Shown here piece after piece: positions 12,953 through 60,062 of a stretch of 64,000 bases of DNA. Location: sequence record MH791411.1. One strand, 5' to 3'. Position 1 is the stretch's first letter. Each line of letters begins with the position of its first letter. The DNA is from Escherichia phage Ecwhy_1. The position numbers were made by a program, and so were the translations under genes. The notes under the pieces are model-generated. The model had not been told where the DNA came from. It did no database searches and saw only the letters and a list, made by a program, of their open reading frames with translations.

Positions 12953-13266
12953 TATATTTCAATCTCTATATATTTTTGGGTAATTAAGTAATCCCAGTAG
13001 TACTTCACTTGTTTTTGTATCTCAAGTAAAGCATAAAAATTAATTCTCTTATCCCATACAAGTGATTCCTGAAAAAGAAATGTTTCATGATCATCTCTGT
13101 AATCACATTCAAGGAAGTCAGGAATATAATCACAATCGTGAAGATATTCAATCATTAAAGATTCATTACATCTTCTAACGGCAAGGTGCTGGAAATTATC
13201 ATGATCGAAGAAATACATTAAACTAATTGTACCTGGAATGTACTGAATACTGTATAATAATTTCAT
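12952..13266 (-). CDS. Fam-A paralog
   Basis: core ETFLFQESLVW. Confidence 0.6.
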   Translation of the reverse strand: MKLLYSIQYIPGTISLMYFFDHDNFQHLAVRRCNESLMIEYLHDCDYIPDFLECDYRDDHETFLFQESLVWDKRINFYALLEIQKQVKYYWDYLITQKYIEIEI

Positions 13267-13706
13267 CGTTTACCCTTATGTGCTGCACGTACATATTCAT
13301 AATCCAAATAAAATCTTGTGCTATCAATACTTTTAAAGTACCACATAATAACTAAAGTATCTAGTACTTCATCATCATACAAAGTACTATTCTGAAAGTA
13401 ATACTCTTCACTATCCCACGGACCTTTCAGTACTTCAAAGTTCAATTTTAAAGGTCTGCTGCGATTATAAAAACGGATTTCACCACCATAAGCATAACTG
13501 ATAAATTCTGCATCTGGATTGTATTGTGAAAAATCTGCGGGACTTTTGGAATTCAGCCCAAGAATAACTGTAGTTGTGGTAAAATCACTATCCTTGTAGT
13601 AGTTACCATTCTCGGCTTTGTATACTTCTTCGAACTTCCCAGCCTTGATATCTTCAATATATACCTGTAGTTCTTTTGCTTTATCCAGAGCACTTTGTAA
13701 TGACAT
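13263..13706 (-). CDS. Fam-A paralog (MSLxSAL subfamily)
   Basis: GPWDSEEYYFQNSTLY ... WYFK; near-identical module in next four genes. Confidence 0.7.
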   Translation of the reverse strand: MSLQSALDKAKELQVYIEDIKAGKFEEVYKAENGNYYKDSDFTTTTVILGLNSKSPADFSQYNPDAEFISYAYGGEIRFYNRSRPLKLNFEVLKGPWDSEEYYFQNSTLYDDEVLDTLVIMWYFKSIDSTRFYLDYEYVRAAHKGKR

Positions 13707-14172
13707 TATCTTCCCCTACAGTATTCTCTACGTATTCATAATCGAAATAGAAACTATCAGAACCAATACTTTTAAAGTACCACATAATTACAATAACATC
13801 TAATTCTTCTTCATTGTACACAGTACTGTTCTGGAAGTAATATTCTTCACTATCCCACGGACCTTCCAGTACTGAATACGGAATGATTGTGTCATAATCA
13901 TCGTAATCAGGACTGTAAATTATAATATCTTCATCTCTACAATAACTAATGTACTGATTGTACATATGATATTCACAGTCATCAGTATCACCCGTATCAG
14001 TGTGTAGTACTAACGTTTCTGCACATATCTCTGACTCATCATAATCGTCGCGGTCTTTTACAAAAAATTCAGTATCAGATGTTTTATACACACCAGGCAC
14101 TGAACCTTCTTGTACCATAATCATGTACTCATGAATCTTCTTTGCTTCTTTCAATGCACTTTCTAATGACAT
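13681..14172 (-). CDS. Fam-A paralog (MSLxSAL subfamily)
   Basis: GPWDSEEYYFQNSTVY ... WYFK. Confidence 0.7.
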   Translation of the reverse strand: MSLESALKEAKKIHEYMIMVQEGSVPGVYKTSDTEFFVKDRDDYDESEICAETLVLHTDTGDTDDCEYHMYNQYISYCRDEDIIIYSPDYDDYDTIIPYSVLEGPWDSEEYYFQNSTVYNEEELDVIVIMWYFKSIGSDSFYFDYEYVENTVGEDNVITKCSG

Positions 14173-14174
14173 TA

Positions 14175-14615
14175 CTAATCCCCTGTACTTAAATATTCAC
14201 ATGCTCCCCAGTCAAGGAAGAAGGGTTCAAAATTCAATTCCTTAAAGTACCACAAAACAACCAAGGAATCAAGCATTTCTTGGTTAAAAATAAGACTCTG
14301 TTGGAAGTAATACTCTTCAGTACCCCACGGCCCATCAAGTACCCCGAAGTCAACAGGTGTATTTGATGTGTCAAAAGTAATCTTAGTACCTGGAATATAT
14401 ACAAAAAAACTAGTATATTGACTACATGAAGAGTACTGTATAGTATTGTCTTTATCATGGCCCATAAGTAAAATATCATCAGAGTATGTCTTTATACCTG
14501 ATAGATAATACTCATTACCAAATGCACTTACTTTATCACCATAGAAACCACTTTTTATGTTATCGTGGAAGTGATGTATTTTGTGTGCCAGTTTAAGTGC
14601 ACTTGCTAAACTCAT
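14175..14615 (-). CDS. Fam-A paralog (MSLxSAL subfamily)
   Basis: GPWGTEEYYFQQSLIF ... WYFK. Confidence 0.7.
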   Translation of the reverse strand: MSLASALKLAHKIHHFHDNIKSGFYGDKVSAFGNEYYLSGIKTYSDDILLMGHDKDNTIQYSSCSQYTSFFVYIPGTKITFDTSNTPVDFGVLDGPWGTEEYYFQQSLIFNQEMLDSLVVLWYFKELNFEPFFLDWGACEYLSTGD

Positions 14616-15082
14616 ATATCCTCTTTAATAACTCGTAGTAGATCCAAGTCCAAATAGAAGCTAGGACAATCTGTATTATTAAAGTACCACAGAATGACAA
14701 GCTTGTCAAGCACATATTCCTCGTAGATAGTATTCTGCTGGAAGTAGAACTCTTCACTTCCCCAGTCATTATCCAGTACTGAATACGGAAGATGTTTCTC
14801 TGCTGCACCAGTTATAATGTCAGTATATTGTATTAAAATATCAGCATCACGACAGAAGTACATGTAATTATCTTCCAGATTAACATCACACCCAGTGAGT
14901 GTTGTTTCAGAAGAATCTAAGTTTTCTTCGTACATGTGAATGTACTCACTACTGTCATCGTATATCATTCGACAATAAGCTTTACCTTCCTTGAATAGAT
15001 ACCCATTGAGTTGATTGAGTACTATTTCCTTTTTACATAAATCAATTAACTTAGCAATTTCTAATGCTCTTTCTAAACTCAT
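14612..15082 (-). CDS. Fam-A paralog (MSLxSAL subfamily)
   Basis: DWGSEEFYFQQNTIY ... WYF. Confidence 0.7.
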   Translation of the reverse strand: MSLERALEIAKLIDLCKKEIVLNQLNGYLFKEGKAYCRMIYDDSSEYIHMYEENLDSSETTLTGCDVNLEDNYMYFCRDADILIQYTDIITGAAEKHLPYSVLDNDWGSEEFYFQQNTIYEEYVLDKLVILWYFNNTDCPSFYLDLDLLRVIKEDI

Positions 15083-15083
15083 T

Positions 15084-15575
15084 TTAACCCCTGTTAATAC
15101 CGTTATCTACAGTTTTCTTTACGTATTTGTAATCGAAATAGAAGTTCCCAGAACCAATACTTTTAAAGTACCACATAATTATAATAACATCAAGTACTTC
15201 ATCATCGTAAACAGTACTTTGTTGGAAGTAATACTCTTCACTATCCCACGGACCTTCCAGTACTTCACTCGGAATTATAATGTCATCGGAATCGCTATCA
15301 GTACTGTAGATGGTATCTGTATCATTAATATAGACCATGTACTCATTATGCATATTAATGAAGCATTCATAATCATTAGGGTCGGTATCCAGTACACACG
15401 TTTCTGTATCCAGTACGCACGTTTCTGTATCTGAGTCGTCATTATTAAGGAGGTTATCCGGTACATAATATTGAGTACTTGTGTCTTTGAAAACACCGTA
15501 AACTGAACCTTCTTTTGCCATATTCATGTACTCATGAATCTTCTTTGCTTTTTCCAATGAACTCTGTAATGTCAT
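15084..15575 (-). CDS. Fam-A paralog (MSLxSAL subfamily)
   Basis: GPWDSEEYYFQQSTVY ... WYFK. Confidence 0.7.
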   Translation of the reverse strand: MTLQSSLEKAKKIHEYMNMAKEGSVYGVFKDTSTQYYVPDNLLNNDDSDTETCVLDTETCVLDTDPNDYECFINMHNEYMVYINDTDTIYSTDSDSDDIIIPSEVLEGPWDSEEYYFQQSTVYDDEVLDVIIIMWYFKSIGSGNFYFDYKYVKKTVDNGINRG

Positions 15576-15584
15576 TTTATAATC

Positions 15585-15944
15585 TCATATATTGAAATAA
15601 TAATTACTTGTTGTTGGTGTAGATGTATCAAAGGTGTTTTCTTTAACATATCTCTTCATTTCATTTTGTATAAAAATCATATCTTCTATTGTACATGAGT
15701 ACTTATTCTTGTCAAACACCAAAGAAGCTTGAAATAGTTCAACATCATCCAGTACTGTATAATCTGTAATACTTTCAGAGTTATAGTCGAAGTCATCATG
15801 CAATACATCAATGAAATTAAAACACAAATCCGAGTACTGAATATATAAACTCAACTCATGTTCCGAGTCACCCTTGACAAGATTACAGCACAAATCCCAC
15901 CCCGTTCTGGACTTGCAAACGTACATCGAATAATCAAATGTCAT
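15585..15944 (-). CDS. Fam-A paralog (DYTVLD-ELFQ subfamily)
   Basis: DYTVLDDVELFQASLVFDK. Confidence 0.65.
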   Translation of the reverse strand: MTFDYSMYVCKSRTGWDLCCNLVKGDSEHELSLYIQYSDLCFNFIDVLHDDFDYNSESITDYTVLDDVELFQASLVFDKNKYSCTIEDMIFIQNEMKRYVKENTFDTSTPTTSNYYFNI

Positions 15945-16300
15945 TCTGGAATTCCTATATTGAATTTGTATTCTTGATTAATACTGACATTGCCTTTATT
16001 CAAAGCAGCATACTCTTTCATTTCATTTTGTATTGCAATAACTTCTTCAAATGTACACAAGTACTTCTTATCAAATACTAATGACTCCTGAAATAGTTCA
16101 GCCTCATCAAGTACTGTATAATCCGGCATATCCTGATGCGGATACTGTAATGAATTGTAATCAATGAATGTAAATTTACCCTGAGTGAAATGAATATACT
16201 CATTTGCACTGTGCATTAAATCACCTTTGTTTAAATTACAAAAGTACTGAAAACTGTTCTTAAAAGAATGTACTGATATTACAAAATCAAATTCCATCAC
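15941..16300 (-). CDS. Fam-A paralog (DYTVLD-ELFQ subfamily)
   Basis: DYTVLDEAELFQESLVFDKKY. Confidence 0.65.
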   Translation of the reverse strand: MMEFDFVISVHSFKNSFQYFCNLNKGDLMHSANEYIHFTQGKFTFIDYNSLQYPHQDMPDYTVLDEAELFQESLVFDKKYLCTFEEVIAIQNEMKEYAALNKGNVSINQEYKFNIGIPE

Positions 16301-16710
16301 TCTTCCCCTAGATTGAAATGATTACAAAAATCAACTTCACCAGTACTGCACCAGATATCTATACATTCCCTGTGAATACATTTAATTCTACGCTGTAATT
16401 CAATCATCTCTTCTAATGTACAGATGTACTTCTTATCAAATACTAATGCCTCCTGAAACAGTGCAGCATCATCAAGTACTGTATAGTCCAACATCTCGGT
16501 TGCTTTACCCCTAAACCCAGTATTAAAATCCATCAAATAAAAGTCAGCATTTTCGTATTTTATAAGCTTGTCCCTTGTGTAGTTTAAATCACCCTTGTAT
16601 AAGTTAGAGTGCGTAACTAACTCACCAGTGTACATCCATGTCCTTGCACAAAATTCATTATATTTTATTTCCATCTTAATCTCTACTATAATTAATAAGG
16701 TAAACTCCAA
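16297..16710 (-). CDS. Fam-A paralog (DYTVLD-ELFQ subfamily)
   Basis: DYTVLDDAALFQEALVFDKKY. Confidence 0.65.
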   Translation of the reverse strand: MEFTLLIIVEIKMEIKYNEFCARTWMYTGELVTHSNLYKGDLNYTRDKLIKYENADFYLMDFNTGFRGKATEMLDYTVLDDAALFQEALVFDKKYICTLEEMIELQRRIKCIHRECIDIWCSTGEVDFCNHFNLGEE

Positions 16711-16868
16711 TATAAGGAGAACGTTCGCGGCGGGGTATTTTTTGTTTCAGGAAACATGAACTGTACTCTGAAAACACATTTTAAAACTTTATATTAAACA
16801 TATACCTTAACATGTTTTTCAGCGAAAATTTTTTTGACCCCCCAGCGGCCTGTGAAAATGAAACGTCT

Positions 16869-17084
16869 CTATTTATTCAGCCTAGAAAGCTTGATTTCTT
16901 CAATCCTTTTCATCGCACAAAGCCTTCGACTCGTCTTCTCGTATATATTCAATACTCGTTGTACTGCATCATCTGCAACTGCAATCTGAACCAAATATGT
17001 ATCCTTCAAAATCGAATCCATCATGTATTCAAAACCTTTCACACTATAACAATATACCACTTCCGGCTCTTCAAACGTAATCAT
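16869..17084 (-). CDS. hypothetical protein
   Basis: co-oriented ORF overlapping next gene start; preferred over plus-strand ORF 16812..17117. Confidence 0.4.
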   Translation of the reverse strand: MITFEEPEVVYCYSVKGFEYMMDSILKDTYLVQIAVADDAVQRVLNIYEKTSRRLCAMKRIEEIKLSRLNK

Positions 17085-17274
17085 AACTCCAATCCCCTAT
17101 TCCATCTAACCTTCTAAGATATCTTGCGTAAATTATTTCGAAATATCTGTGCAACGAAATTACGGATTGCTCATAATCATCATTCCTGTACATTGTGCAT
17201 GTAAGAAAATCATTTAAACCGTAATCTAAACTGCACTTGAACTTCTCCTTTGCAACATCTCTAAAATTATCCAT
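17071..17274 (-). CDS. hypothetical protein
   Basis: co-oriented ORF, ATG start. Confidence 0.4.
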   Translation of the reverse strand: MDNFRDVAKEKFKCSLDYGLNDFLTCTMYRNDDYEQSVISLHRYFEIIYARYLRRLDGIGDWSYDYV

Positions 17275-17428
17275 AATATGTCCTCTGCACAGCGTAGGTG
17301 TACTGTGAACTCAGCACCGTTAATAGGTAATCTATGTTGTAAGCACGATTTCCTCGTTGACTAGCACGACTAGAATAAAGAATATTATCCACATATGTAT
17401 CGAACTGTTCTTCAAATAACTCTTTCAT
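17267..17428 (-). CDS. hypothetical small protein (53 aa)
   Basis: hand-translated ATG..TAA ORF not in track (<60 aa); overlaps downstream start by 8 nt. Confidence 0.3.
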   Translation of the reverse strand: MKELFEEQFDTYVDNILYSSRASQRGNRAYNIDYLLTVLSSQYTYAVQRTYYG

Positions 17429-17437
17429 CAGCACCCT

Positions 17438-18064
17438 TTAGCACCCTTTAACAACTTTTGAAATGTAATCTTCTAATGCACCAATGTTCTTTGTATTCGT
17501 TCGAACTAAAAGATAACTTAAATTCTCGAACTCCTGAACATAATGCTTAACAGCGTACATGCATCGTAATTCAAAATCTGTATGAACCGTTTTGTACTGA
17601 AATAACATCTCTTCTGAAGCCTCTAAAAGCTCTGTAGCTTGTTCTGTACTGAACTTAAAGGGATTCTGTACTCCTGAACTAAAACACTTTTGTTCGTTCG
17701 TCTGGACACCCTGTGATAGATATAATCCTGTACTACCATCTTGTGTTGATATCGAATTGAAACCATTACTTGCAACCATTAAATCTGAACTCAATACAAA
17801 TAATAATTTATCTTCCTTATGAATTAATAAATCTGACTTCAGGGATTTTATTCCTGTACTGGTTATATCACCTATACTAAGATTGTCACTGAACTTCTCA
17901 GCGTTGTTCGCAATGCTCTGGACAAGATTTTTTAATCTCTTAATGGCACTTCTGTCTTTTTCTAATGTATCTAATAAACTCATTGAACTCATTGTACTTT
18001 CCTTACATATTTGTACCGAACAAAACGGAACTTTGAATGCCATTAATCGACACTTCATGTACAT
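17438..18064 (-). CDS. Fam-A paralog
   Basis: core EEMLFQYKTV; start uncertain. Confidence 0.55.
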   Translation of the reverse strand: MYMKCRLMAFKVPFCSVQICKESTMSSMSLLDTLEKDRSAIKRLKNLVQSIANNAEKFSDNLSIGDITSTGIKSLKSDLLIHKEDKLLFVLSSDLMVASNGFNSISTQDGSTGLYLSQGVQTNEQKCFSSGVQNPFKFSTEQATELLEASEEMLFQYKTVHTDFELRCMYAVKHYVQEFENLSYLLVRTNTKNIGALEDYISKVVKGC

Positions 18065-18347
18065 ATATATTTTGTCTGAATACCTGAAGCAATTGAACTA
18101 AACTCTGTTGCATAATAATATGCATCGCTAAATTATCAAAGGCCGTTTCGTGTTGGAATCGTGCAGCTTCATCTTCTATGAAATTCGGAACTTGGACTGG
18201 ATTCTCAAAATTTGTCCTTGTACTGAACTGTACATCATTGTCCTGTACCTTAATACCATATGAATTATCATTGTTATCAACTACATCAAATTCAATTAAA
18301 CTACCATCTTTACTGACGTTTACTATATAAACTGAAAATCTACTCAT
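18003..18347 (-). CDS. hypothetical protein, divergent Fam-A
   Basis: DEAARFQHE motif. Confidence 0.5.
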   Translation of the reverse strand: MSRFSVYIVNVSKDGSLIEFDVVDNNDNSYGIKVQDNDVQFSTRTNFENPVQVPNFIEDEAARFQHETAFDNLAMHIIMQQSLVQLLQVFRQNIYVHEVSINGIQSSVLFGTNM

Positions 18348-18982
18348 AATCCTATTTCCTTTAAATCTTCCAAAAATGTTTCATAATCACTTAAGGAAAA
18401 AAAGATATCCGTATCGATGTTCGCATCTAATACATTATACAAATTCTGCATCTGTAACACATCAGGAGCATCAATCAATGATTGCTGGAAATATGCAGCT
18501 TCATCTTCTAAAATATCCCTGAATGTTCTCTCTCGTACTCTGTGGTGTACTGAATTGAATATTGATTTCTCATCCTTAAGCATTGGTAGGTATCGAATGT
18601 ACATGTGTTCTCTTAGCTCAGGACTGATGGAACCCCTGAACTGTAACACGTATTCGAAGCACATAGCAACATCCTGAAGGTAATTGGCACTGTAATTATT
18701 GCTGTAAACAATCTTATGACTTCTGAACTCATCATCATTTCTGAACCAATTGTCACCTACTTTGGTGTACTTATGACTAAGCAATCCACCCTCTAACGCT
18801 TTGATGATCTTCAAAATGTTGTGTGCAAATGCATATGATGTATTGTACTTGGCCTGATACATGTGTGCCTCAACCTTATCTTGTGTTAAAATATTCACTG
18901 AAATGATTATAACACAAAAGCACCACGATGTTAAGCACTCTGTTGTCAAAATCATCTTGTGATGTAGGATGCAATGACGCAT
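18344..18982 (-). CDS. Fam-A paralog
   Basis: core DEAAYFQQSLI; true start may be internal (about 18862). Confidence 0.55.
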   Translation of the reverse strand: MRHCILHHKMILTTECLTSWCFCVIIISVNILTQDKVEAHMYQAKYNTSYAFAHNILKIIKALEGGLLSHKYTKVGDNWFRNDDEFRSHKIVYSNNYSANYLQDVAMCFEYVLQFRGSISPELREHMYIRYLPMLKDEKSIFNSVHHRVRERTFRDILEDEAAYFQQSLIDAPDVLQMQNLYNVLDANIDTDIFFSLSDYETFLEDLKEIGL

Positions 18983-19070
18983 TGATGTTAAAATTCACTA
19001 TATCATTGTGGAATTGGTATGTGAACAAATCAAACTTCGTATGCCTTTGTTTGATATCATAGGCGGTCAT
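18876..19070 (-). CDS. hypothetical small protein
   Basis: 64-aa ORF between two Fam-A genes; real only if 18344..18982 starts at internal Met. Confidence 0.3.
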   Translation of the reverse strand: MTAYDIKQRHTKFDLFTYQFHNDIVNFNINASLHPTSQDDFDNRVLNIVVLLCYNHFSEYFNTR

Positions 19071-19071
19071 A

Positions 19072-19680
19072 TTATATATTCAACCCTTTAACAATGGAAA
19101 TAAATTCTTTGTAAACATTTTCAGGTAAAGCTCTACTACCATAAAGAACACTAAATTCAGGTAACATATCCGAAATCTCTTTCGCTAAATTTATTTCATC
19201 CCTGAACATTTGCACAGGCATGATATCCTGTACCAATGATAACTGAAAGAAAAATGATTCAATATCTTCATGCACCTCTGAATTTAAATAAATCTCTTCT
19301 GGAAACTGGGCTGTACTGTAATAATAAAATACGTCAATTCTTTTTTCATTATTTTGTACAAGAGGTAAATTTCTTTCGTCTCTCTTATTAATATTTGTTT
19401 TCCATGACTCAATGTTATTCGGAACCCAAAACTCATAAGGTGTCTTCTCTCCTGAAATATTATCCAGCTTCAATCCATAATATTCACTTTCGCCGTACTT
19501 TTGCTTCAAAACAATACCTGTACTACTAATGTTTACAATGTACGTATCAACAATCCCTTCTGTGGTAAAAGGAATATTTAACTCTGAACCTTCAGGGTAC
19601 TTAGCATTGAATGCATCTAATGCTTTACTTAGCACTGGAATTGCACTTGCACTGTACTTCATTAATTGGTCTATGTTCAT
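19072..19680 (-). CDS. Fam-A paralog
   Basis: core ESFFFQLSLV. Confidence 0.55.
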   Translation of the reverse strand: MNIDQLMKYSASAIPVLSKALDAFNAKYPEGSELNIPFTTEGIVDTYIVNISSTGIVLKQKYGESEYYGLKLDNISGEKTPYEFWVPNNIESWKTNINKRDERNLPLVQNNEKRIDVFYYYSTAQFPEEIYLNSEVHEDIESFFFQLSLVQDIMPVQMFRDEINLAKEISDMLPEFSVLYGSRALPENVYKEFISIVKGLNI

Positions 19681-20321
19681 TTTAATTCCCCTGTAATCAC
19701 TGCATTTACTGCACTTGATGCAAATAAACTGATATTTGAACGATACATATCGTACACTGTACTTTCTTTCTTGTGCACAATGAAATCATAAAGATCAACA
19801 AATGCAGGAATAATAATCTTGAATGATTTATTTGGGTACGTCCCAAAATCAACTGTACTCAATTTTGCAACGAGCATAACAACAAAGATTTCTTCTGGAC
19901 TATACACTGTACTGTACTGAAAATAATCCTCTGCACTCATGGCACTCATTGCATTTATATCTTGTGTTTGTAATGTAATATTAAGACAATCAAAAATATA
20001 ATAAAACTCTGATTTGTTTTGTATTTTGTATTTGTCAATTGGGGTATCTCTCATGAACCATAAACGATCTTGTCCATAAAAAGGAATGATTGAATTTGGG
20101 GAAGCCAGAAATACTTCTTCTCTATCAATATCCTTTAACTCAATTTGCATACCGGATGAATTGGCAATAATTAATTCATTAAAAATATAATGAACCTTGT
20201 GTACAATCTCTTGTACTGAATTGAAATCATCTGGTATTTTAAAATTTTCCATAGGTATCTCCTTAAAATGATTACACATTGTACCATGCATTTGTACTCG
20301 TGTCAAACAAAAAAAGCCCAT
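19677..20321 (-). CDS. Fam-A paralog
   Basis: core AEDYFQYSTVY. Confidence 0.6.
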   Translation of the reverse strand: MGFFCLTRVQMHGTMCNHFKEIPMENFKIPDDFNSVQEIVHKVHYIFNELIIANSSGMQIELKDIDREEVFLASPNSIIPFYGQDRLWFMRDTPIDKYKIQNKSEFYYIFDCLNITLQTQDINAMSAMSAEDYFQYSTVYSPEEIFVVMLVAKLSTVDFGTYPNKSFKIIIPAFVDLYDFIVHKKESTVYDMYRSNISLFASSAVNAVITGELK

Positions 20322-25866: not shown

Positions 25867-26140
25867 ATTTCTCTTTATTAGCTTGTTTAGATTGTGTGGT
25901 TTTATAGTGAATTAAATCTATTAATGTAATCAAGTACAACGTCAAATAGTACTCTTGTTGATCTGTACCTAATGATACAAAGAACTTGTGCTCATAGATT
26001 AAAACCTGTTTCTCATAACAAGAACACTTAATCCTATGTATAGGTTTCAGTAAATGTGAGTACTTATTAAATCTCATACCCATTTCTATTTCAGATAGTA
26101 CTTTCATATTAAACATGTACTCCATTAGCTGTAGCATCAC
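25856..26140 (-). CDS. Fam-B minigene
   Basis: array member, LGTDQQEY. Confidence 0.5.
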   Translation of the reverse strand: MMLQLMEYMFNMKVLSEIEMGMRFNKYSHLLKPIHRIKCSCYEKQVLIYEHKFFVSLGTDQQEYYLTLYLITLIDLIHYKTTQSKQANKEKYEN

Positions 26141-26330
26141 GTAAAGCTCTCAAATACTTCTGTACTGCTTGCTCTTGATGATCTGTACCTAAAAGTATAT
26201 ACATCCATAATTCACTGTAATGTACATCTTGTGTATAAGGGTTGTTGTAACTTTTTGATAATATAGCATCAAATTCAGATGCATGAACCCTTGCGAACTT
26301 AAGCATATCTTGTTGTGTTATGATTCTCAT
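26109..26330 (-). CDS. Fam-B minigene
   Basis: array member, LGTDHQEQ. Confidence 0.55.
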   Translation of the reverse strand: MRIITQQDMLKFARVHASEFDAILSKSYNNPYTQDVHYSELWMYILLGTDHQEQAVQKYLRALRDATANGVHV

Positions 26331-26542
26331 ATCTTTTCCTGTACTATCTGCATAAGAATCTCTATGTGTGAATTAACAGTTCTCTCTTGATGCTGTGTTC
26401 CTAAGAGTGTCAGTACTATCATATCTGAACGCAAAAGATTTTTTTCAAGTTCACTTATATCAGTTCTTGAATCAAGTGCCATATATTTGTGATTATTCTT
26501 CCTGAATAGTGCCAAGTACTCTTGATTTGATATTTCCTTCAT
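26327..26542 (-). CDS. Fam-B minigene
   Basis: array member, LGTQHQER. Confidence 0.55.
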   Translation of the reverse strand: MKEISNQEYLALFRKNNHKYMALDSRTDISELEKNLLRSDMIVLTLLGTQHQERTVNSHIEILMQIVQEKI

Positions 26543-26778
26543 AGTTTATCCCTGATGCCATTTAAAAGTGCTCTAATATGCTCCTGTACGAATTTGTACT
26601 GACTGTCTGTTCCTAGAGTGAGTAGTAATCTTAAATCTGAACTTTTGATATGATATTCTAAATCATTATTTGATTCTTGCATCAGTTTCTTAAAGGATGA
26701 GAAGTTTGCAGCCATTAGTTCAATGTATTCTGCTGTTCCTAGGGGTTTGTGTATTGGCTGTTTGTGCTGTCTGTGCAT
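26539..26778 (-). CDS. Fam-B minigene
   Basis: array member, LGTDSQYK. Confidence 0.55.
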   Translation of the reverse strand: MHRQHKQPIHKPLGTAEYIELMAANFSSFKKLMQESNNDLEYHIKSSDLRLLLTLGTDSQYKFVQEHIRALLNGIRDKL

Positions 26779-26990
26779 TTTAATTTTATTACCCTTTTGA
26801 GTGTATTAATGTAATTATACACATTGGCTTCTTGATAGTTTGTTCCTAGAGTAGCTTGAACGTAGATTTCATTTAACTTAATAATTTTATCAGTATCTGG
26901 AAGTTTTGATGTGTTAATGGCAAATAACTTCGAAAACAGTCCATTTATGATTGTTAGGTATTCTTCGTCGGTAATGATTCGCATTTGCAT
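26739..26990 (-). CDS. Fam-B minigene
   Basis: array member, LGTNYQEA; start likely internal. Confidence 0.55.
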   Translation of the reverse strand: MQMRIITDEEYLTIINGLFSKLFAINTSKLPDTDKIIKLNEIYVQATLGTNYQEANVYNYINTLKRVIKLKCTDSTNSQYTNP

Positions 26991-27196
26991 TGGATAAACC
27001 TTTTTAGTTCTTTGATGTAATCATTAATATTACATTCTTGATAGTTAGTCCCTAGGGTAGAATTAACATAGATTTCACTCATTAGAATATTTTTTTCTTC
27101 ATCAGGTAAATCTGTGGTCTTTGCTATATACAATTTTAGAATTAAACTACTTAATAGTTCGTGGTATTCACTTGGTGAAAGGATTTTCATTTGCAT
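26954..27196 (-). CDS. Fam-B minigene
   Basis: array member, LGTNYQEC. Confidence 0.55.
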   Translation of the reverse strand: MQMKILSPSEYHELLSSLILKLYIAKTTDLPDEEKNILMSEIYVNSTLGTNYQECNINDYIKELKRFIQCKCESLPTKNT

Positions 27197-27402
27197 GTTC
27201 TCAGTACAGATTCTTTAAGTTCATCGATGTAGTCCTCAACGAATTGCTCTTGGAAGTTAGTTCCAACATATAAAAGAACTCTTAAATCTGCTCTAAGTAA
27301 CTCTTTTTCATCCTCATCTATATCAGACAATGTTATGTTTAAGAATTTACTTGTATTAAAGATTAACAATTCTGTTTGTTCACTGTGGCTTAAAATTTTC
27401 AT
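27187..27402 (-). CDS. Fam-B minigene
   Basis: array member, VGTNFQEQ. Confidence 0.55.
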   Translation of the reverse strand: MKILSHSEQTELLIFNTSKFLNITLSDIDEDEKELLRADLRVLLYVGTNFQEQFVEDYIDELKESVLRTCK

Positions 27403-27610
27403 AATCTCTTTTTGCTTTCCTCGACAGTAGGTACAAATACGATTCTTCGTATTGTGCTTGGAAGTTTGTGTTTAAGAGTCGAAACAACTTCTGTTCTGCT
27501 AGAACGAGTTGCTTATCTTCATAACAACGGTAGCGTATCAACTTTTTGTATTCGATGTTGATTACATCCATTACTATAAGCCCATGTTCATCATCTGTCA
27601 AGTGCTTCAT
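27380..27610 (-). CDS. Fam-B minigene
   Basis: array member, LNTNFQAQ. Confidence 0.5.
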   Translation of the reverse strand: MKHLTDDEHGLIVMDVINIEYKKLIRYRCYEDKQLVLAEQKLFRLLNTNFQAQYEESYLYLLSRKAKRDYENFKPQ

Positions 27611-27848
27611 GCTTTTTTCTTTTCCTGATGTGTTTAGTTAAAAGGTATATTAGTTTTCTGATGTATTCTTCTTGATAGTTTGTTCCTAGGAGTGCCAGAA
27701 GTTTTGCTTCAACTAAAGCTAATTGACGTTCTTCAAATGTGTGTTCCAGTATGTACTTTGGGTTTGATTTTTTAGATATTGCACTATTAGTTTTCATTAC
27801 AATCTTATGATATTCATTAACTGTTAGGATTTTTAAATTCTTGAGCAT
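27591..27848 (-). CDS. Fam-B minigene
   Basis: array member, LGTNYQEE. Confidence 0.55.
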   Translation of the reverse strand: MLKNLKILTVNEYHKIVMKTNSAISKKSNPKYILEHTFEERQLALVEAKLLALLGTNYQEEYIRKLIYLLTKHIRKRKKHEALDR

Positions 27849-28074
27849 GTACCTTTTCCTTTATAGAGAATTTAAGATATCGAAGCATACTTTCAATGTA
27901 ATACTCTTGTCTGTCAGTGCCAAGAAAGTACATGAGTTGAATGTATAAAACTTCTGCACTCCTTTCGGCATGTGACTTGTTTGTGTCGTTTGGAAGTTGA
28001 TTTGTAAGTTTTCTGGATTTAATTAGTCGTTCTTTTAACTCATCGTCTGTTAAGTATTTCATTTCATTTTGCAT
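27817..28074 (-). CDS. Fam-B minigene
   Basis: array member, LGTDRQEY. Confidence 0.55.
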   Translation of the reverse strand: MQNEMKYLTDDELKERLIKSRKLTNQLPNDTNKSHAERSAEVLYIQLMYFLGTDRQEYYIESMLRYLKFSIKEKVHAQEFKNPNS

Positions 28075-28294
28075 TTACTTTTTCCTTAATACTCATTACA
28101 AGATGTTCAATCATATTTTGAACCATAAATTCTTGTTTATCAGTTCCAAGAACGTATGGTAGCTTCTGAAACAATACATTCGCAGACATTTCATATATTG
28201 ATTGATTTGGAACGAACTTAAGAGTAATGTTATTGGCTTTTAACATCTTCTCTTGAAATTCTTCATTCGTTAAGTATATCATTTCACTTTGCAT
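28064..28294 (-). CDS. Fam-B minigene
   Basis: array member, LGTDKQEF. Confidence 0.55.
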   Translation of the reverse strand: MQSEMIYLTNEEFQEKMLKANNITLKFVPNQSIYEMSANVLFQKLPYVLGTDKQEFMVQNMIEHLVMSIKEKVNAK

Positions 28295-28520
28295 TTACTT
28301 TTTCCATAATAGTAATTTTGAGATATTTAATTATACGTTCAATGTGATACTCTTGCCTATCAGTTCCAAGAATGTATGGTAATCTTTGGAATAAAACTTC
28401 TGCACTCCTTTCCGCTGGGGTTTGGTTTGGGTTGTGTGGAAGATATTTTGTAAGTTTTTTGGATTTATCTAGTCTTTCTGTTAACTCATCATGTGTTAAG
28501 TATATCATTTCATTTTGCAT
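28284..28520 (-). CDS. Fam-B minigene
   Basis: array member, LGTDRQEY. Confidence 0.55.
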   Translation of the reverse strand: MQNEMIYLTHDELTERLDKSKKLTKYLPHNPNQTPAERSAEVLFQRLPYILGTDRQEYHIERIIKYLKITIMEKVNAK

Positions 28521-28756
28521 TTAATGTTCCTTACGTAAATTGTCTGGATTAAACAATCAATCCAAGTTTGAATATATTGGTTTTGATACTGTGTGCCTAA
28601 GAGACTCTGCATTTTAAACTCTGCTTCAAGTTCATATCTCTTTTCTATAGAAAAGCTCAAATGACCATATTCTTTATCGTATCTTCTCAGTGCTTCCCCA
28701 ATTCTATCAAATCTTTCTGCTAATCTGATGTTATTCACAATATTCATCGCATTCAT
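28505..28756 (-). CDS. Fam-B minigene
   Basis: array member, LGTQYQNQ. Confidence 0.55.
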   Translation of the reverse strand: MNAMNIVNNIRLAERFDRIGEALRRYDKEYGHLSFSIEKRYELEAEFKMQSLLGTQYQNQYIQTWIDCLIQTIYVRNIKCKMK

Positions 28757-29031
28757 CGATCAGTACACCTCAGTGGTTGGGTCATTTGATGAAAGTACAG
28801 CTTACCTCTGATTTCCAGTAGTAACTCAGCAATTAAGCGATTTACTTCTGGCTCTTGATAGTTTGTTCCTAAGAATACACCCATCTTTAACTCACGCATC
28901 ATAATCATTTTCTTACTGTGTTGAATTTCTGGGTTGTGATAGATTGTATTACGTTTGTGCGTAATTTTTGTCATACGCTCGGTATATTCATCTTTACTTA
29001 AATTGATCATTTGCATGTTCATCAACCTCAC
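28753..29031 (-). CDS. Fam-B minigene
   Basis: array member, LGTNYQEP. Confidence 0.55.
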   Translation of the reverse strand: MRLMNMQMINLSKDEYTERMTKITHKRNTIYHNPEIQHSKKMIMMRELKMGVFLGTNYQEPEVNRLIAELLLEIRGKLYFHQMTQPLRCTDR

Positions 29032-29242
29032 ATTTATTTTCGATACAAATCATGAGTTCTCTAAGATAGTTTTTTACCTTACCTGCCTGATAGTTCGTCC
29101 CCAGGAAGTTGCATAACTCTGCTTCTATCATTTTGATTCTTCTGTTATCAGGTTTCAATTTTTTGTTATTGAAGATTTGAATCCTTATATCCCTTGATGC
29201 ATTTAAACGTTTTTGATATTCATGGAAAGATAAATTAATCAT
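28994..29242 (-). CDS. Fam-B minigene
   Basis: array member, LGTNYQAG. Confidence 0.55.
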   Translation of the reverse strand: MINLSFHEYQKRLNASRDIRIQIFNNKKLKPDNRRIKMIEAELCNFLGTNYQAGKVKNYLRELMICIENKCEVDEHANDQFK

Positions 29243-29457
29243 TTACTTTGTATCTCTCTCTTGAGGGCATCAATTAACAACAGTACAGCATTCTCTTGAT
29301 AGTTTGTTCCTAAGACTGAAAGCATCTTAATCTCATTTACTACGATCAACTTCTTTGAGCGTTCAATAATGTTACTATTATAAACGGCGTTACGTGCTGG
29401 ATAAGTTTTTGCAAGACGTTCATAATATTCATCTTTACTTAAATTAATCATTTGCAT
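29239..29457 (-). CDS. Fam-B minigene
   Basis: array member, LGTNYQEN. Confidence 0.55.
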   Translation of the reverse strand: MQMINLSKDEYYERLAKTYPARNAVYNSNIIERSKKLIVVNEIKMLSVLGTNYQENAVLLLIDALKREIQSK

Positions 29458-29666
29458 TTACTTTTGACCTCCTTGACTAATGCATCAACCCACATGTCTA
29501 TATACATTTGTTGATAGTTTGTCCCTATGAGTGCCCCTGCATAGAGTTCAGCTATCAATGCATGTTTTAGGTTGGCAGGGATGCTCTTATCAGATTGAAT
29601 CTTTACTCTTCTGTTGGCACATGTTTTCAGGAGTCTGATGTATTCAAAGCCTTGTAATTTTCTCAT
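29448..29666 (-). CDS. Fam-B minigene
   Basis: array member, IGTNYQQM. Confidence 0.55.
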   Translation of the reverse strand: MRKLQGFEYIRLLKTCANRRVKIQSDKSIPANLKHALIAELYAGALIGTNYQQMYIDMWVDALVKEVKSKCK

Positions 29667-29878
29667 TCTTTTGATATCACCTTGTTACGTAAGGCACTTA
29701 ACAATACGTCAGTGTAGATGTTTTGATAGTTTGTTCCTACGAATACACCCAACTTCATTTCAGCTATTATAACACATTTGTCCTCTTGTGCAATAGACTT
29801 GTCTAAAGAAATACTAACAACTTTCCTTCTTATAGCTTGTAACCTCCAATGATACTGAAACTCATTTAGGGTTATCAT
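29663..29878 (-). CDS. Fam-B minigene
   Basis: array member, VGTNYQNI. Confidence 0.55.
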   Translation of the reverse strand: MITLNEFQYHWRLQAIRRKVVSISLDKSIAQEDKCVIIAEMKLGVFVGTNYQNIYTDVLLSALRNKVISKE

Positions 29879-30113
29879 TCTCTCGCCTCCATATCTCGGT
29901 TCTAATGTGTTGACATTGTGCTTCGATGAACATATCTATTGATTTGGCAATTGCTTTTTTATCAGTGCCTGTCATCAGTACAAGCATCTCGGCCTCACAG
30001 TGAAGTAAACGCATGATATCATAGGGTAATATTCCAGATACCGTGTCATAGTGTTTCTGTGCCAGTGTCTGTAATAGTTTACAATACATTTTGTGATTTA
30101 GTCTTTGTCGCAT
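29862..30113 (-). CDS. Fam-B minigene (divergent)
   Basis: array member, TGTDKKAI. Confidence 0.45.
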   Translation of the reverse strand: MRQRLNHKMYCKLLQTLAQKHYDTVSGILPYDIMRLLHCEAEMLVLMTGTDKKAIAKSIDMFIEAQCQHIRTEIWRRENDNPK

Positions 30114-30370
30114 TGTCTATTCCATTCTTTTTTGGCCTTGATGGTTTTATATTGGATTTGGTTTCTTAATGCTGATAAGTATCGTTGAATGAACAGATCT
30201 TGATAGTTTGTTCCAATGAATTTCATAAGATAAAGTTCACCGTTGATAACATCCACTTCAGGTGCACCATATAAGGCATTGTTTTTTCTAAGGGCATGGA
30301 TTAAAGAGAATAGGGCAGTTTGATACTCAACTCCTGATAAAGTCTTCATGTTTTGTGAGCCAATAATCAT
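30098..30370 (-). CDS. Fam-B minigene
   Basis: array member, IGTNYQDL. Confidence 0.55.
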   Translation of the reverse strand: MIIGSQNMKTLSGVEYQTALFSLIHALRKNNALYGAPEVDVINGELYLMKFIGTNYQDLFIQRYLSALRNQIQYKTIKAKKEWNRQCDKD

Positions 30371-30590
30371 CTAGTTTATCCTGTATAACATTCATTAATT
30401 GTTCGACATATTCTGTGCAAAACTTATCTTGATATTGAGTCCCCATAAAGTACAGCAACCATAGCTCATTAACTTTAGCTCGCATTTGGTTCCATGTAAG
30501 GCTGGGGTCATCGTAGACTATCCTTGCTATAGGGGTTAGTTTACGGACTATAGTTTCATATTCATCTAGTGTTAAGTGTTTCATTTGCAT
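30327..30590 (-). CDS. Fam-B minigene
   Basis: array member, MGTQYQDK. Confidence 0.55.
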   Translation of the reverse strand: MQMKHLTLDEYETIVRKLTPIARIVYDDPSLTWNQMRAKVNELWLLYFMGTQYQDKFCTEYVEQLMNVIQDKLDDYWLTKHEDFIRS

Positions 30591-30799
30591 TTGTCCCTTA
30601 TTAAATCAGTGAGGGCAACTATGTGTGCAACAACATACTCTTCCTGAAAGTTCGTCCCCAGTACAGCCATCATGCGTATATCGGTGGTGTTTATTCTGTG
30701 TTCCCTTACACATAAACCTTCTGTGTGAGGAAGTGTAAAATATTTGTTTATTGCAGCAACGATAATTTTATTCTTCTCGTAATTACTTAAATGTTTCAT
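30581..30799 (-). CDS. Fam-B minigene
   Basis: array member, LGTNFQEE. Confidence 0.55.
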   Translation of the reverse strand: MKHLSNYEKNKIIVAAINKYFTLPHTEGLCVREHRINTTDIRMMAVLGTNFQEEYVVAHIVALTDLIRDKCK

Positions 30800-31008
30800 A
30801 GTTTGCTCTTAATGTATTTCTGGAGTGCAATTATATACTCATTCAAGAAGTGCTCCTGATAATCTGTGCCGAGGAATGCACCCAATAGTATATCATTTTC
30901 CAATACTAATGCTAAGTTTAAATCATCAGTCTCTTCATATACTATGAGAATTTCAAGTTGTCTGGCAGCGACGCGTTCGGTATATAGATTTGAGTTAATG
31001 CTATTCAT
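30796..31008 (-). CDS. Fam-B minigene
   Basis: array member, LGTDYQEH; near-duplicate of next gene. Confidence 0.6.
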   Translation of the reverse strand: MNSINSNLYTERVAARQLEILIVYEETDDLNLALVLENDILLGAFLGTDYQEHFLNEYIIALQKYIKSKL

Positions 31009-31217
31009 AGTTTACTCTTAATGTAATTCTGGAGTGCAATTAAGTATTCCCCTACATAATACACCTGAAAGTCTGTATCCAAAAATGCACCCATAAGTAA
31101 ATCTTTTTCTAATACCCTTGATAAGTTAAGGTCTGCATTTGAATTGTATATAATTAAGATTTTATTCTGGACAGAAACAAAACGTATCTTATATTCTTCT
31201 GGTGTTAAAAAAATCAT
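31005..31217 (-). CDS. Fam-B minigene
   Basis: array member, LDTDFQVY. Confidence 0.55.
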   Translation of the reverse strand: MIFLTPEEYKIRFVSVQNKILIIYNSNADLNLSRVLEKDLLMGAFLDTDFQVYYVGEYLIALQNYIKSKL

Positions 31218-31423
31218 AGTTTACTCTTAATATCTTCTATTAAAAAATGAATCCAATCATCAACATACTCTTCCTGATGGTTTGTGTTCAGTACAGCCAA
31301 CATGCGGATCTCTGCTCTTGCAACTTGGATTTCAGTTTTAGAAAGGTCTTTGCTGATATCAAACATTAAGTCCATGTATTTCAAGATAAGACCGAATGAT
31401 TGGGTTCGTGTTATAGTTTTCAT
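31214..31423 (-). CDS. Fam-B minigene
   Basis: array member, LNTNHQEE. Confidence 0.55.
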   Translation of the reverse strand: MKTITRTQSFGLILKYMDLMFDISKDLSKTEIQVARAEIRMLAVLNTNHQEEYVDDWIHFLIEDIKSKL

Positions 31424-31620
31424 TGTTTCCTCGTGGACAATATTTCATTTTTCAATGCATCCATATATTGAATCACCCATCTTCCCTGATAGCTTGTACC
31501 CAATGTAATCAAAAGGTATAACTCAATTCGTTCTAAGTTTGTGTCTGTGTTATAAATCTTTACCATGTTTTTACGTAACAGTTCTTGATAATCTTCTTTA
31601 TTTAAAATACGCATTTTCAT
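31420..31620 (-). CDS. Fam-B minigene
   Basis: array member, LGTSYQGR. Confidence 0.55.
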   Translation of the reverse strand: MKMRILNKEDYQELLRKNMVKIYNTDTNLERIELYLLITLGTSYQGRWVIQYMDALKNEILSTRKQ

Positions 31621-31814
31621 AGTCTACCTTTTATGTCCCTTCGTAATTCTTGTAAGTATAGTTCGATATACTTTTCTTGATAGTTAGTTCCTATGAAAAG
31701 TTTCATAACCAATTCACGCTTATATGCAATACCACGGATATGTGACATATGTAAGATATATGCCATGTTGGATATGAGTGTGTGGTTGTGCTCTTCTTGA
31801 GTTAAAATACGCAT
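31617..31814 (-). CDS. Fam-B minigene (first of array)
   Basis: IGTNYQEK; TTGACT ... TATTAT promoter about 31840-31875 upstream. Confidence 0.55.
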   Translation of the reverse strand: MRILTQEEHNHTLISNMAYILHMSHIRGIAYKRELVMKLFIGTNYQEKYIELYLQELRRDIKGRL

Positions 31815-33164: not shown

Positions 33165-33409
33165 TTTGAATCTCCTAACTTTGTGGGCCGTCGCACCATT
33201 GCCGCCCTACGAGATACATTATTGCAGTACTGATATACTTTGTCAATACTTTTTTATTAATAGTTTTAGTTCCACCAGCAGATAGTTACTCACCGTTATT
33301 AACTATATATTTTGGATACACTTATGCACCCTGTGGGCTAGTTTTTGTCTATGCGTATATAATAGCAAAGGGACTGACCTGAGTCAATCCCTTTTTTTAT
33401 TCTTTTTTG

Positions 33410-35940: not shown

Positions 35941-36164
35941 GATTTTATTCCTTAATATACCAGGGAGAACCATTCCCCCTCTCGATATAAAACATTATAC
36001 TTGATTCTAAGTACAATGCAAGTACTTTTTTAAAAATAGTTTTCAGTACTGAATACTTATATAATAGATACACTTCCGCACCCTATGGGTCAGTGAGTTA
36101 TCTCTCAATGGATATATAATAGCAAAGGGACTGACCGGAGTCAATCCCTTTTTTTAATCTTTTT

Positions 36165-36749
36165 TTATCGTGTTACCTTACTTGCTGCCACATCACGCTT
36201 TTTATAGTACTGATTCCAGATATTGCTGGTTAAACCGTAATCAAGTACTTTAATAAGTCCATTACGATCCTGGCCGATATTCTGTTTTCTGATATCTCTT
36301 ATCGTTAGTGTTGATAATGTATCATCAACGTGTTGTAGTGCATCAGCAAAGCGGTGCTGGCGTTCGATTGCATTACGTTTAATATTGTACTTTAATTCAT
36401 TGCACGCGTTTACGTGCTTCACACTGCCTTTGCTTGCAGTACTCAACCGATCCATAACGATAAACATATTATCAGGATCGCATAAATGCATATGCACCTT
36501 TGCAAAGTACTGTTTCAATTGAGGGCGGTCATAGTCTAAAAAATTCCATACCTTACATTCAGTTTCATTTTGTTCTACACCCGCATCACAATTCGCGACC
36601 TTAATCACTAACCGATCATTTAAAGCGAAAACTATACGGGAAGAACCAGCACCGATGATCTCCAGGCCAGCTAACCGACAAGCTGAAAGGATCTCTTTGT
36701 TGGTTTCCATTTCTGACAGTGTACGGATGAATTTAGTATAATTACGCAT
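36165..36749 (-). CDS. protein-kinase-like protein (putative Ser/Thr kinase)
   Basis: G-loop IGAGSSRIVF, VIKV lysine, catalytic-loop-like IRDIRKQN, DFG-like LDYG; trimmed to ATG after AAGGAG SD. Confidence 0.55.
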   Translation of the reverse strand: MRNYTKFIRTLSEMETNKEILSACRLAGLEIIGAGSSRIVFALNDRLVIKVANCDAGVEQNETECKVWNFLDYDRPQLKQYFAKVHMHLCDPDNMFIVMDRLSTASKGSVKHVNACNELKYNIKRNAIERQHRFADALQHVDDTLSTLTIRDIRKQNIGQDRNGLIKVLDYGLTSNIWNQYYKKRDVAASKVTR

Positions 36750-36780
36750 TGCATGTTCTCCTTGAGTTAATGAAACTATA

Positions 36781-37023
36781 TTACAGTACTTTACTATCAA
36801 TGGCAACTACTTTTTTAACATTAACGGCGTGGATCACTTCCTTCGTGTTTTTAGTACTGAATACTTTCGCCGCTCCTTGTTCGACCGTGATACGATAGCG
36901 ACCATTAACATCAACCATATTAATAAAGTCCGGCGTGCTGAATGGTGTTGTTTTACATTTGAGTACTGTTAACAGTTCCACCAGCGATGTAGTTTCTTTG
37001 ATACGTTTTTCTAAAGTAATCAT
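36781..37023 (-). CDS. hypothetical protein
   Basis: trimmed to MITLEKRIKE; track N-terminus is translated leader. Confidence 0.45.
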   Translation of the reverse strand: MITLEKRIKETTSLVELLTVLKCKTTPFSTPDFINMVDVNGRYRITVEQGAAKVFSTKNTKEVIHAVNVKKVVAIDSKVL

Positions 37024-37080
37024 TTTGTTTCCCCCGTGTTGGTATGTACATATAGTACTAAAACATTTGAGTACTGTCAA

Positions 37081-39117: not shown

Positions 39118-39578
39118 TTTAATGTTTCCTTATCAGTGGTTGATGTAAGTATTATACTCGTTTACTTTCTATTGTCAAACTATTTTATCAGGGGAGTTTT
39201 TCGTATGTCTTACTCCTGGACTACTTAACGGGGTTACTTATTTCGTTCCCCGTCCTGATGTAAAACATTATACTTGATTCTAAGTACAATGCAAGTACTT
39301 TTTTAAAAATAGTTTTCAGTACTAGCCACCAGCAAACAATAGATACATTTATGCACCCTGTGGGCTAATTTGTTTCTATGCGTATATAATAGCAAAGGGA
39401 CTGACCGGAGTCAATCCCTTTTTCAAATATTTTTAAACTTCTTTCGGGTTGCGATATGTGATAGCGTTCGGGTACATTTGTTTAATGTTATTCCATGCCT
39501 GGTTAACATTATAACCACTTGATCGAATCAGTTGGTTATTACCGACACCTTGAAACACTACTTCAAATAAGAATTCTT

Positions 39579-60029: not shown

Positions 60030-60037
60030 ATTAATAT

Positions 60038-60062
60038 GCCAGTACTTGATACTGGCTTTTTT
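60038..60062 (+). terminator. rho-independent terminator
   Basis: GCCAGTActtgaTACTGGC hairpin plus T6. Confidence 0.65.

Follow-up and report, generated by a model that had tools for sequence, protein, structure and literature searches.

We analyzed a 64,000-nucleotide stretch of the genome of Escherichia phage Ecwhy_1 (MH791411.1), referred to here in its full length as the window, with a focus on one short minus-strand gene, which we call the mini-kinase gene. An original prediction, made from the letters alone, had described it as a compact protein-kinase-like gene in an early-type cassette with a product of 195 amino acids. The 195 codons include the stop, and the product is therefore 194 amino acids long. 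The open reading frame (ORF) exists on the minus strand only, the plus-strand frame at 36165 to 36749 being broken by many stops, and it begins at an ATG (36749 to 36747) preceded by a Shine-Dalgarno sequence (Table 1). The start Met is common to 13/13 close homologs in an alignment, and the same 585-bp coding sequence (CDS) is annotated in public records. The immediate neighbors of the gene in the window all encode small proteins of unknown function. No paralog of the mini-kinase was found within the window, and searches of the window for tRNA genes and Rfam matches likewise returned none.

Table 1. Features of the mini-kinase gene and its surroundings (positions in the window)
Feature	Position	Strand	Basis
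Mini-kinase CDS, 194 amino acids plus TAA stop	36165..36749	minus	ORF and homologs
Shine-Dalgarno AAGGAG, 8 nt upstream of ATG	36758..36763	minus	sequence reading
Probable promoter TTGACA-17-TACTAT	37052..37080	minus	sequence; in repeat cassette D7
Gly-rich ATP loop I32-G-A-G-S-S-R-I-V-F41 (beta1-beta2)	36627..36656	minus	PKA alignment and model
V48-I-K50-V51, beta3 lysine, VAIK equivalent	36597..36608	minus	position and invariance
E64, putative alpha-C glutamate in G57-x-x-Q60-N61-x-x-E64 signature	36558..36560	minus	invariance and model
Catalytic loop I150-R-D152-I-R154-K-Q-N157	36279..36302	minus	PKA alignment
L169-D170-Y-G172, DFG equivalent, Mg-binding Asp	36234..36245	minus	PKA alignment
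C-terminal tail, residues 173 to 194, helix 175 to 182, at expected activation-segment start	36168..36233	minus	hhalign, Pfam, model
Terminator-like hairpin, 12 bp, 14 nt after mini-kinase stop	36124..36151	minus	sequence

Kinase motifs, fold and conservation

The four motifs on which the original prediction was built are all present and in canonical order: I32-GAGSSRIVF-41, V48-IKV-51, I150-RDIRKQN-157 and L169-DYG-172. When the family was aligned to PKA with hhalign, “RDIRKQN...LDYG” matched “RDLKPEN...TDFG” residue for residue, placing D152 at PKA D166, R154 at K168, N157 at N171, D170 at D184 and G172 at G186, so that the proposed catalytic loop, an Asp followed five residues later by an Asn, lies in register with that of PKA. 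Retention of N157 is a property of the close clade (Asn in 12 of 13 close alignment sequences, query included) but does not extend to the wider family. The Gly-rich loop was also correctly recognized, with G33 and G35 at PKA G50 and G52, but it reads G-x-G-x-x-R, an invariant Arg (R38, at PKA G55) standing in place of the third Gly. K50 lies within strand 47 to 52 of the structural model described below and aligns with the invariant K93 in “VIKV” of the phage T7 gp0.7 kinase (T7K); the hhalign alignment to PKA is out of register at K50, and its assignment as the beta3 Lys comes from position and invariance. E64, which lies inside model helix 55 to 73 and one residue off PKA E91 in the same alignment, would be the alpha-C Glu that pairs with K50.

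Relatives were collected in a HMMER scan of 1.84 billion cluster representatives, which recovered a family of 2,072 members at E<=1e-3 (248 at E<=1e-10). We used a close set of 13 homologs (40 to 96% identity) and a conservation set of 111 relatives (down to ~22% identity). Profile searches for a kinase fold, the point at which the original prediction could have failed, returned significant kinase matches instead. The top Pfam match of the single sequence was Pkinase (PF00069; E 0.004, profile positions 26 to 152 of 263), at a score of 17 bits, which is below the Pfam gathering threshold of 31.7, and a Pkinase match at E<0.01 was found in only 6/111 relatives. All 19 weak matches from a phmmer search against the PDB (19/19) were protein kinases, aligned on RDIKxxN...DFG. 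A profile built from the 13 homologs matched MKK4/MKK7 in the PDB (E 1.5e-4 to 1e-3), the alignment starting at the Gly-loop and running past DFG. The 111-sequence profile matched MKK4 at E 2.9e-5; of its 509 PDB matches at E<=1, the 60 top-ranking ones were all kinases. The 111-sequence family alignment matched PKA (sequence of 1ATP chain E) in hhalign with a probability of 85.7% (E 5.5e-6), and the catalytic Asp, the Asn and the DFG-Asp were in register. In PADLOC, the only similarity was to PD-T4-6, weak and of a generic kinase kind (E 7e-4). An NCBIfam scan of the mini-kinase gave no match, and no Pfam or NCBIfam model covers the family. A match was obtained to PHROG 4301 (E 1.8e-41, 143 bits, residues 3 to 188 against profile positions 13 to 185 of 225), which is listed in PHROGs as function unknown.

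AlphaFold (AF2) modeling with 13 homologs was unusable, at a predicted local distance difference test (pLDDT) score of 49; with the 111 relatives, pLDDT reached 95.1 and the predicted template modeling score (pTM) reached 0.91. The latter model has N-terminal helices at residues 4 to 12 and 17 to 26, strands at 30 to 34, 38 to 42 and 47 to 52, a long helix C at 55 to 73 and a further strand at 96 to 100, followed in the C-lobe by helices at 109 to 120 and 130 to 145, short strands at 158 to 160 and 166 to 168 that flank the catalytic region, and a last helix at 175 to 182. A Foldseek search of the PDB with this model returned kinases, APH and RIO, with PDB kinases at a TM-score (TMq) of <=0.45. 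The mini-kinase certainly has a bilobal kinase fold and is distant from every solved structure, and the fold ranking leaves protein and small-molecule substrates undistinguished. The profile matches, the register with PKA and the model fold together support the kinase-like reading, and we are highly confident that the protein is a protein-kinase-like (PKL) fold with an intact active site.

The protein terminates 22 residues past G172 (~24 past the DFG equivalent), with a single short helix following DYG in the model, and the PKA alignment reaches no further than PKA residue 195, short of Thr197 in the activation loop. A chain that ends at about PKA residue 195 has no activation loop, P+1 loop, APE motif or helices F to I. 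In eukaryotic-type protein kinases (ePKs), the activation segment and helices F to I bind peptide substrates and anchor the hydrophobic spines.

Seven residues (G33, G35, K50, E64, D152, D170 and G172) are invariant in the close set of 13, and R38, K50, G57, Q60, E64, D170 and G172 are invariant in 111/111 relatives. Near-invariant among the 111 are D152 (109/111), G159 (110/111), S36 (105/111) and G35 (104/111). The resulting family signature runs G-x-G-S-S-R-x-V-[FY] ... V-[LI]-K-x-A-x-N-x-x-G-x-x-Q-N-x-x-E in its first half and D-[LI]-x(4,5)-[NHS]-[WIL]-G ... L-D-Y-G in its second. Among Asteriusvirus orthologs, the ratio of nonsynonymous to synonymous substitution (dN/dS) is 0.03 to 0.18, and the mini-kinase is under strong purifying selection. 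Invariance of catalytic residues combined with low dN/dS is the pattern of an active enzyme and not of a decaying pseudokinase.

Orthologs, public annotation and the wider family

The 3 kb around the mini-kinase gene are 95 to 99% identical to Asteriusvirus-type jumbo coliphages of 348 to 386 kb, including fEgEco12, WPEC3, ph0011, G17, Sharanji and PBECO4, and by this sequence match the window is that of an Asteriusvirus-type jumbo coliphage resembling G17, PBECO4 and Sharanji. A tblastn search found the mini-kinase in 59 phage records at identities from 100% down to 27%. Among the 40 records listed, all but one were jumbo phages of 320 to 386 kb in the RaK2/PBECO4 supergroup (Asteriusvirus, RaK2/K64-1, SE_PL, fENko-Kae01, XbC2, Kaldavass, EJP2, CBB and fHe-Yen9-04), the lone non-jumbo record among these matches being the 52-kb Klebsiella record phiKp_21. 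Proteins 100% identical to the mini-kinase occur in phages ph0011, WPEC3, WPEC5 and BAU.Micro_ELP-22.

Most public records label the ortholog hypothetical. Exceptions include fEgEco12 (“serine/threonine-protein kinase PRP4”), ph0011 and, in UniProt, PBECO4 (“protein kinase domain-containing protein”), SE_PL and fENko-Kae01 (“putative protein kinase”), and Turkey5 (“serine/threonine-protein kinase”). The paper describing fEgEco12 is silent on its own “PRP4 kinase” annotation. The Sharanji ortholog is gp063 (WNN14351.1), to which the Sharanji paper devotes one sentence: “another protein kinase ... function is unknown” (PMC11895373). The kinase label is thus already public in GenBank, in UniProt and in one paper, and the annotation as such is not new.

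The PBECO4 UniProt entry (L7TKF0) is truncated to 147 amino acids, whereas all 194 (95% identity) are encoded in the PBECO4 DNA. No annotation covers the gene in CMSTMSU (MH494197.1, 116446 to 117023), where the match (79% identity) is split into two parts, perhaps because of a frameshift or a sequencing error. Another ortholog (P0005) is deposited as the E. coli “hypothetical protein QPL51_04540” on a 347-kb contig. This contig looks like a complete jumbo-phage genome that ended up in a bacterial assembly; G17-like phage genomes have been described in such assemblies (PMC13645617). A locus search with the narrow alignment returned a single viral contig (phage 121Q-like) and no match in bacterial genomes.

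At 50% identity, the wider family falls into >2,000 clusters. We examined the genomic context of 12 distinct members, and each (12/12) lies in a phage or large phage-like contig, nine being in phage-like metagenomic contigs of 7 to 287 kb and three in RaK2/Asteriusvirus jumbo-phage genomes. Distant members (23 to 26% identity) occur in phage-like contigs of 46 to 287 kb with CCA-adding, HD, NUDIX, release factor or ART-PolyVal genes. Some family proteins hold two to four complete kinase modules in one chain: P0021 (L015:1051-3132) is a single uninterrupted ORF with three modules, and P0023, P0027, P0030 and P0032 are also multimodular. Each tandem module has its own GxGSSR, VIKVA, QNxxE, D...WG and LDYG motifs, and the large phage-like metagenomic contigs that carry such ORFs reach 185 kb.

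Neighboring genes of distant members include Metallophos phosphoesterases (L013:1128-1913, L014:232-1017 and L015:3118-3972), ART-PolyVal arrays (L013 and L016), FGE-sulfatases (L011/L012 and L019), an RtcB RNA ligase directly upstream of one member (L017:3475-4920) and a CCA-adding enzyme with HD at a distance of 3 kb (L007 to L010; L007:9482-11190). Two of the Metallophos neighbors could not be aligned with each other, and one was without a PDB relative. In one 2,130-amino-acid gene call (P0119), kinase modules are merged with GNAT, 2H phosphoesterase and CCA-adding domains. No universal gene partner was found across nine distant contexts, the neighbors being lineage specific, and genomic context therefore does not fix the substrate.

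Predicted early transcription and terminal-repeat location

The mini-kinase gene lies within a long run of small minus-strand genes. Perfect TTGACA-N16-18-TATAAT sigma-70 promoters number 13 on the minus strand of the window versus 1 on the plus strand, and 11 of the 13 are concentrated within 33.7 to 42.9 kb (33693, 35221, 35715, 38137, 38567, 38838, 39178, 40129, 41167, 42279 and 42855). The promoters are embedded in reiterated intergenic cassettes (repeat families D1 to D8). The probable promoter in cassette D7, read from 37080 to 37052, precedes an 80-amino-acid gene (36781 to 37023) that ends 31 nt before the mini-kinase ATG; since no terminator-like site was found between this promoter and the ATG, the two genes are probably cotranscribed. 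The terminator-like hairpin beyond the mini-kinase stop overlaps the -35 box of the next promoter (36144 to 36116).

In two relatives the ortholog lies inside an annotated direct terminal repeat: at 16690 to 17274 within a repeat of 1 to 21,525 in vB_Ec-M-J, and at 16233 to 16823 within a repeat of 1 to 19,736 in fENko-Kae01. The virion genomes of these two phages thus carry two copies of the gene near their ends, and the gene is likewise placed twice in several further Asteriusvirus records. The early-type cassette anticipated in the original prediction is borne out by the promoter cluster and by the terminal-repeat location in relatives, and early transcription by the host RNA polymerase, as predicted from these features, is well supported.

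The same region shows further repeated structures. The intergenic cassettes also carry a 5'-untranslated-region hairpin of the GGGGAGAAC...GTTCTCCCC type ahead of the ribosome-binding site, and “FYIERG/GGEPFP” strings appear in spurious ORFs because these are translated from the cassettes. Three composite elements (33367 to 33394, 36124 to 36151 and 39394 to 39421) are nearly identical to one another. In each, the 5' arm of a GC-containing hairpin of 12 bp includes a TTGACT -35 box, and a TATTAT -10 box comes after the hairpin; read on the plus strand, the hairpin runs into a stretch of T residues, and these elements may be bidirectional terminators fused to promoters. The minus strand also bears a tandem array of 25 paralogous genes of ~70 to 85 amino acids (26109 to 31814), with one more copy at 11169 to 11360, and further paralog families of 11, 7 and 7 small minus-strand genes are present in the window. 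On the plus strand, four paralogous genes of ~380 to 410 amino acids occupy 58881 to 63729, and the corresponding Sharanji region includes an RCC1-repeat protein.

Proposed function and comparison with T7K and other kinases

T7K is a protein kinase with a truncated layout and a family-defining DPV in place of DFG, and it disarms many bacterial defense systems by mass phosphorylation (PMC13645617). Phages of the G17/Sharanji type carry a diverged T7K homolog (PMC13645617; PMC11895373), which in Sharanji is gp144 (WNN14432.1; 224 amino acids, L006:44183-44857, outside the window), a true T7K relative by its match to PHROG 15752 (E 1e-97). Together, gp144 and the mini-kinase mean that Asteriusvirus-type phages encode two truncated kinases unrelated by sequence.

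Our favored reading, which we hold with slightly better than even confidence, is that the mini-kinase is an immediate-early, catalytically competent, minimal PKL phosphotransferase that acts on proteins in the manner of T7K. Its components merit different degrees of confidence. Real phosphotransferase activity is likely. By analogy to T7K and from the preference of sequence profiles for protein kinases, proteins are most probably the substrate class, although our confidence in protein substrates as such is evenly balanced. A role in host takeover or anti-defense, of the kind put forward in the original prediction, is again a tentative suggestion by analogy. If this reading is correct, the lack of an activation segment and the open substrate face would make the mini-kinase constitutively active as soon as it is made. 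In the first minutes of infection it would phosphorylate hydroxyl groups on host proteins, and perhaps on phage proteins as well, with the gamma-phosphate taken from Mg-ATP. The similarly truncated T7K works in this way when it remodels host machinery and disarms defenses, and the mini-kinase would act beside the separate T7K-like kinase of its phage genus without replacing it.

Several observations weigh against this proposal. Literature searches found no functional characterization of the family or any of its members, and the early timing is read from promoters and genome position. The Arg at D+2 stands where Ser/Thr kinases typically have Lys and is variable family-wide, and the position of the metal-binding Asn is N/H/S/Q across the 111 relatives. 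Some distant members adjoin RNA-repair or tRNA genes. No significant sequence link between the mini-kinase and T7K was obtained by BLASTP or hhalign. Finally, Ser/Thr/Tyr make up 18.7% of residues in the putative early proteins of the window and are not depleted, in a test that is crude because it rests on mechanical ORF calls and has no late-gene control in the window; such depletion is the footprint of a hyper-promiscuous kinase according to the T7K paper (PMC13645617).

The possibility that the mini-kinase is an active PKL phosphotransferase with a nonprotein substrate, whether a small molecule, a nucleotide that serves as an immune signal or an RNA, in the style of APH/choline kinase or Ark1/ArkI, seems unlikely to us, yet it has evidence in its favor. 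The archaeal proteins Ark1/ArkI, at 173 to 216 amino acids, 2'-phosphorylate tRNA. All ePK peptide-binding elements are absent from the mini-kinase, distant members lie directly downstream of RtcB or 3 kb from a CCA-adding enzyme and HD, and the merged gene call described above joins a member to a 2H phosphoesterase and a CCA-adding enzyme; it is the RNA-repair flavor of some neighbors that keeps the RNA-substrate hypothesis alive. Conversely, these RNA-gene neighbors are not universal and, since huge phages carry many tRNA genes, their proximity could be due to chance, while none of the small proteins encoded next to the gene in the window has a known function. In the profile searches protein Ser/Thr and Tyr kinases come out on top, APH, choline-kinase and Kdo-kinase Pfam models did not match the mini-kinase even at E<=10, and the APH-type His at D-2 is absent. 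Moreover, T7K, with the same truncation, is a protein kinase (PMC13645617).

A related and rather improbable reading is that the family is an ancient sister of T7K which kept the catalytic half only and either uses a noncanonical substrate (tRNA/RNA or nucleotide immune signals) or forms a second, distinct system of broad anti-defense phosphorylation. Such a family would deploy single or two to four tandem modules, and its anti-defense form would be expressed from the first DNA entering the cell.

Closer kinship would make the mini-kinase a diverged T7K paralog, performing the same hyper-promiscuous phosphorylation of DNA-binding defense systems and redundant with the T7K homolog of the phage, which we consider quite improbable. 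The two share a truncated layout that ends ~25 residues after the DFG-like Asp and an N-lobe pattern, “AG[LF]xx[LI]GxG...S...V[IL]K[IV]”. In BFVD, T7K-type kinases of Autographiviridae matched the model at TMq 0.51 to 0.58 (E ~1e-6 to 1e-5), better than any cellular PDB kinase, and are its closest characterized viral structures. The Sharanji T7K-like protein scored 13.8 bits against the hidden Markov model (HMM) of the mini-kinase family, and hhalign against an 11-sequence T7K alignment gave a probability of 32% (E 4.8e-4), with only the Gly-loop and catalytic Lys in register. Against single T7K-type sequences, however, the hhalign probability was just 2 to 5%, and BLASTP of the mini-kinase to T7K or gp144 was insignificant. 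The mini-kinase also has D170-Y-G where the T7K alignment has an invariant D213-P214 of the DPV motif (PMC13645617), it is without the C-terminal DNA-binding/shut-off domain of T7K, and the early ORFs of the window lack Ser/Thr/Tyr depletion.

It is very improbable that the mini-kinase is a pseudokinase or ATP-binding scaffold that binds a host target without phosphorylating it, or that it uses the kinase fold for another chemistry, like the AMPylating SelO or the glutamylating SidJ. Consistent with such a role are the replacement of the third Gly by the invariant Arg38, the family-specific G57-x-x-Q60-N61 signature of unknown role, the failure of the wider family to keep the metal-binding Asn, and the lack of the spine-anchoring helix F of active ePKs. 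Against it, the clade retains each of the five canonical catalytic residues, unlike the pseudokinase pattern, and RIO, Bud32 and Ark1 are truncated PKL folds that can be active. The same is true of T7K (PMC13645617). Chance resemblance to a kinase, for which one could cite the single-sequence Pfam score of 17 bits against a threshold of 31.7 and the lack of an NCBIfam match, is rejected as having negligible probability given the profile E-values, the high-confidence model with kinase matches and invariance at exactly the catalytic positions.

The mini-kinase gives Asteriusvirus/RaK2-type jumbo phages a second minimal kinase, sequence-unrelated, beside their T7K homolog, placed in a terminal-repeat and early-promoter region that probably acts first, and it belongs to a family of >2,000 clusters without a curated model. 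Identification of its substrate would tell whether phages generally rely on truncated “half-kinases” to take over the host, and how a kinase core works without helix F and the activation segment. The question has gained some interest since phage kinases were recently shown to be capable of acting as broad anti-defense weapons (PMC13645617).

Among known systems, the mini-kinase shares with ePKs (PF00069) the canonical order of Gly-rich loop, beta3 Lys, alpha-C Glu, D...N loop and DFG-type Asp, but it covers only ~58% of the domain (Pfam positions 26 to 152 of 263; PKA residues 45 to 195), and K50 and E64 are separated by 14 residues, in contrast to 19 in PKA. Compared with APH(2''), it lacks both the His at D-2 (I150-R-D152) and the C-terminal helical substrate-binding subdomain, and membership in the APH/choline-kinase family was rejected, since there was neither a family HMM match nor an H-x-D-x4-N motif. 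No RIO or Bud32 Pfam model was matched; small atypical kinases of the RIO, Bud32 and Ark1/ArkI types score below ordinary protein kinases and APH, and Ark1/ArkI membership was rejected because similarity did not exceed that to generic kinases. The type III effector mini-kinases OspG, NleH and HopBF1 were not among the top 50 to 60 structural matches of the model.

Membership in the T7K family was likewise rejected: the mini-kinase matches PHROG 4301 only and no T7K PHROG at E<=1, while the positive controls, T7K and gp144, match 2828, 15752 and 18305 (the T7K family identifiers being PHROG 2828/15752 and Pfam PF27024), and DYG in place of DPV and the insignificant BLASTP result also count against it. 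The mini-kinase represents an uncharacterized family among phage-encoded minimal kinases, and nothing about it contradicts current understanding. What it has in common with T7K is that both are early-region phage genes encoding a PKL fold that ends soon after the DFG-type Asp: in T7K, the DFG-like D213-P-V lies ~30 residues before the end of the kinase domain, and gp144 ends ~20 residues after the equivalent Asp. In our reading, the two share a superfamily and a minimal layout, and they may be distant sisters.

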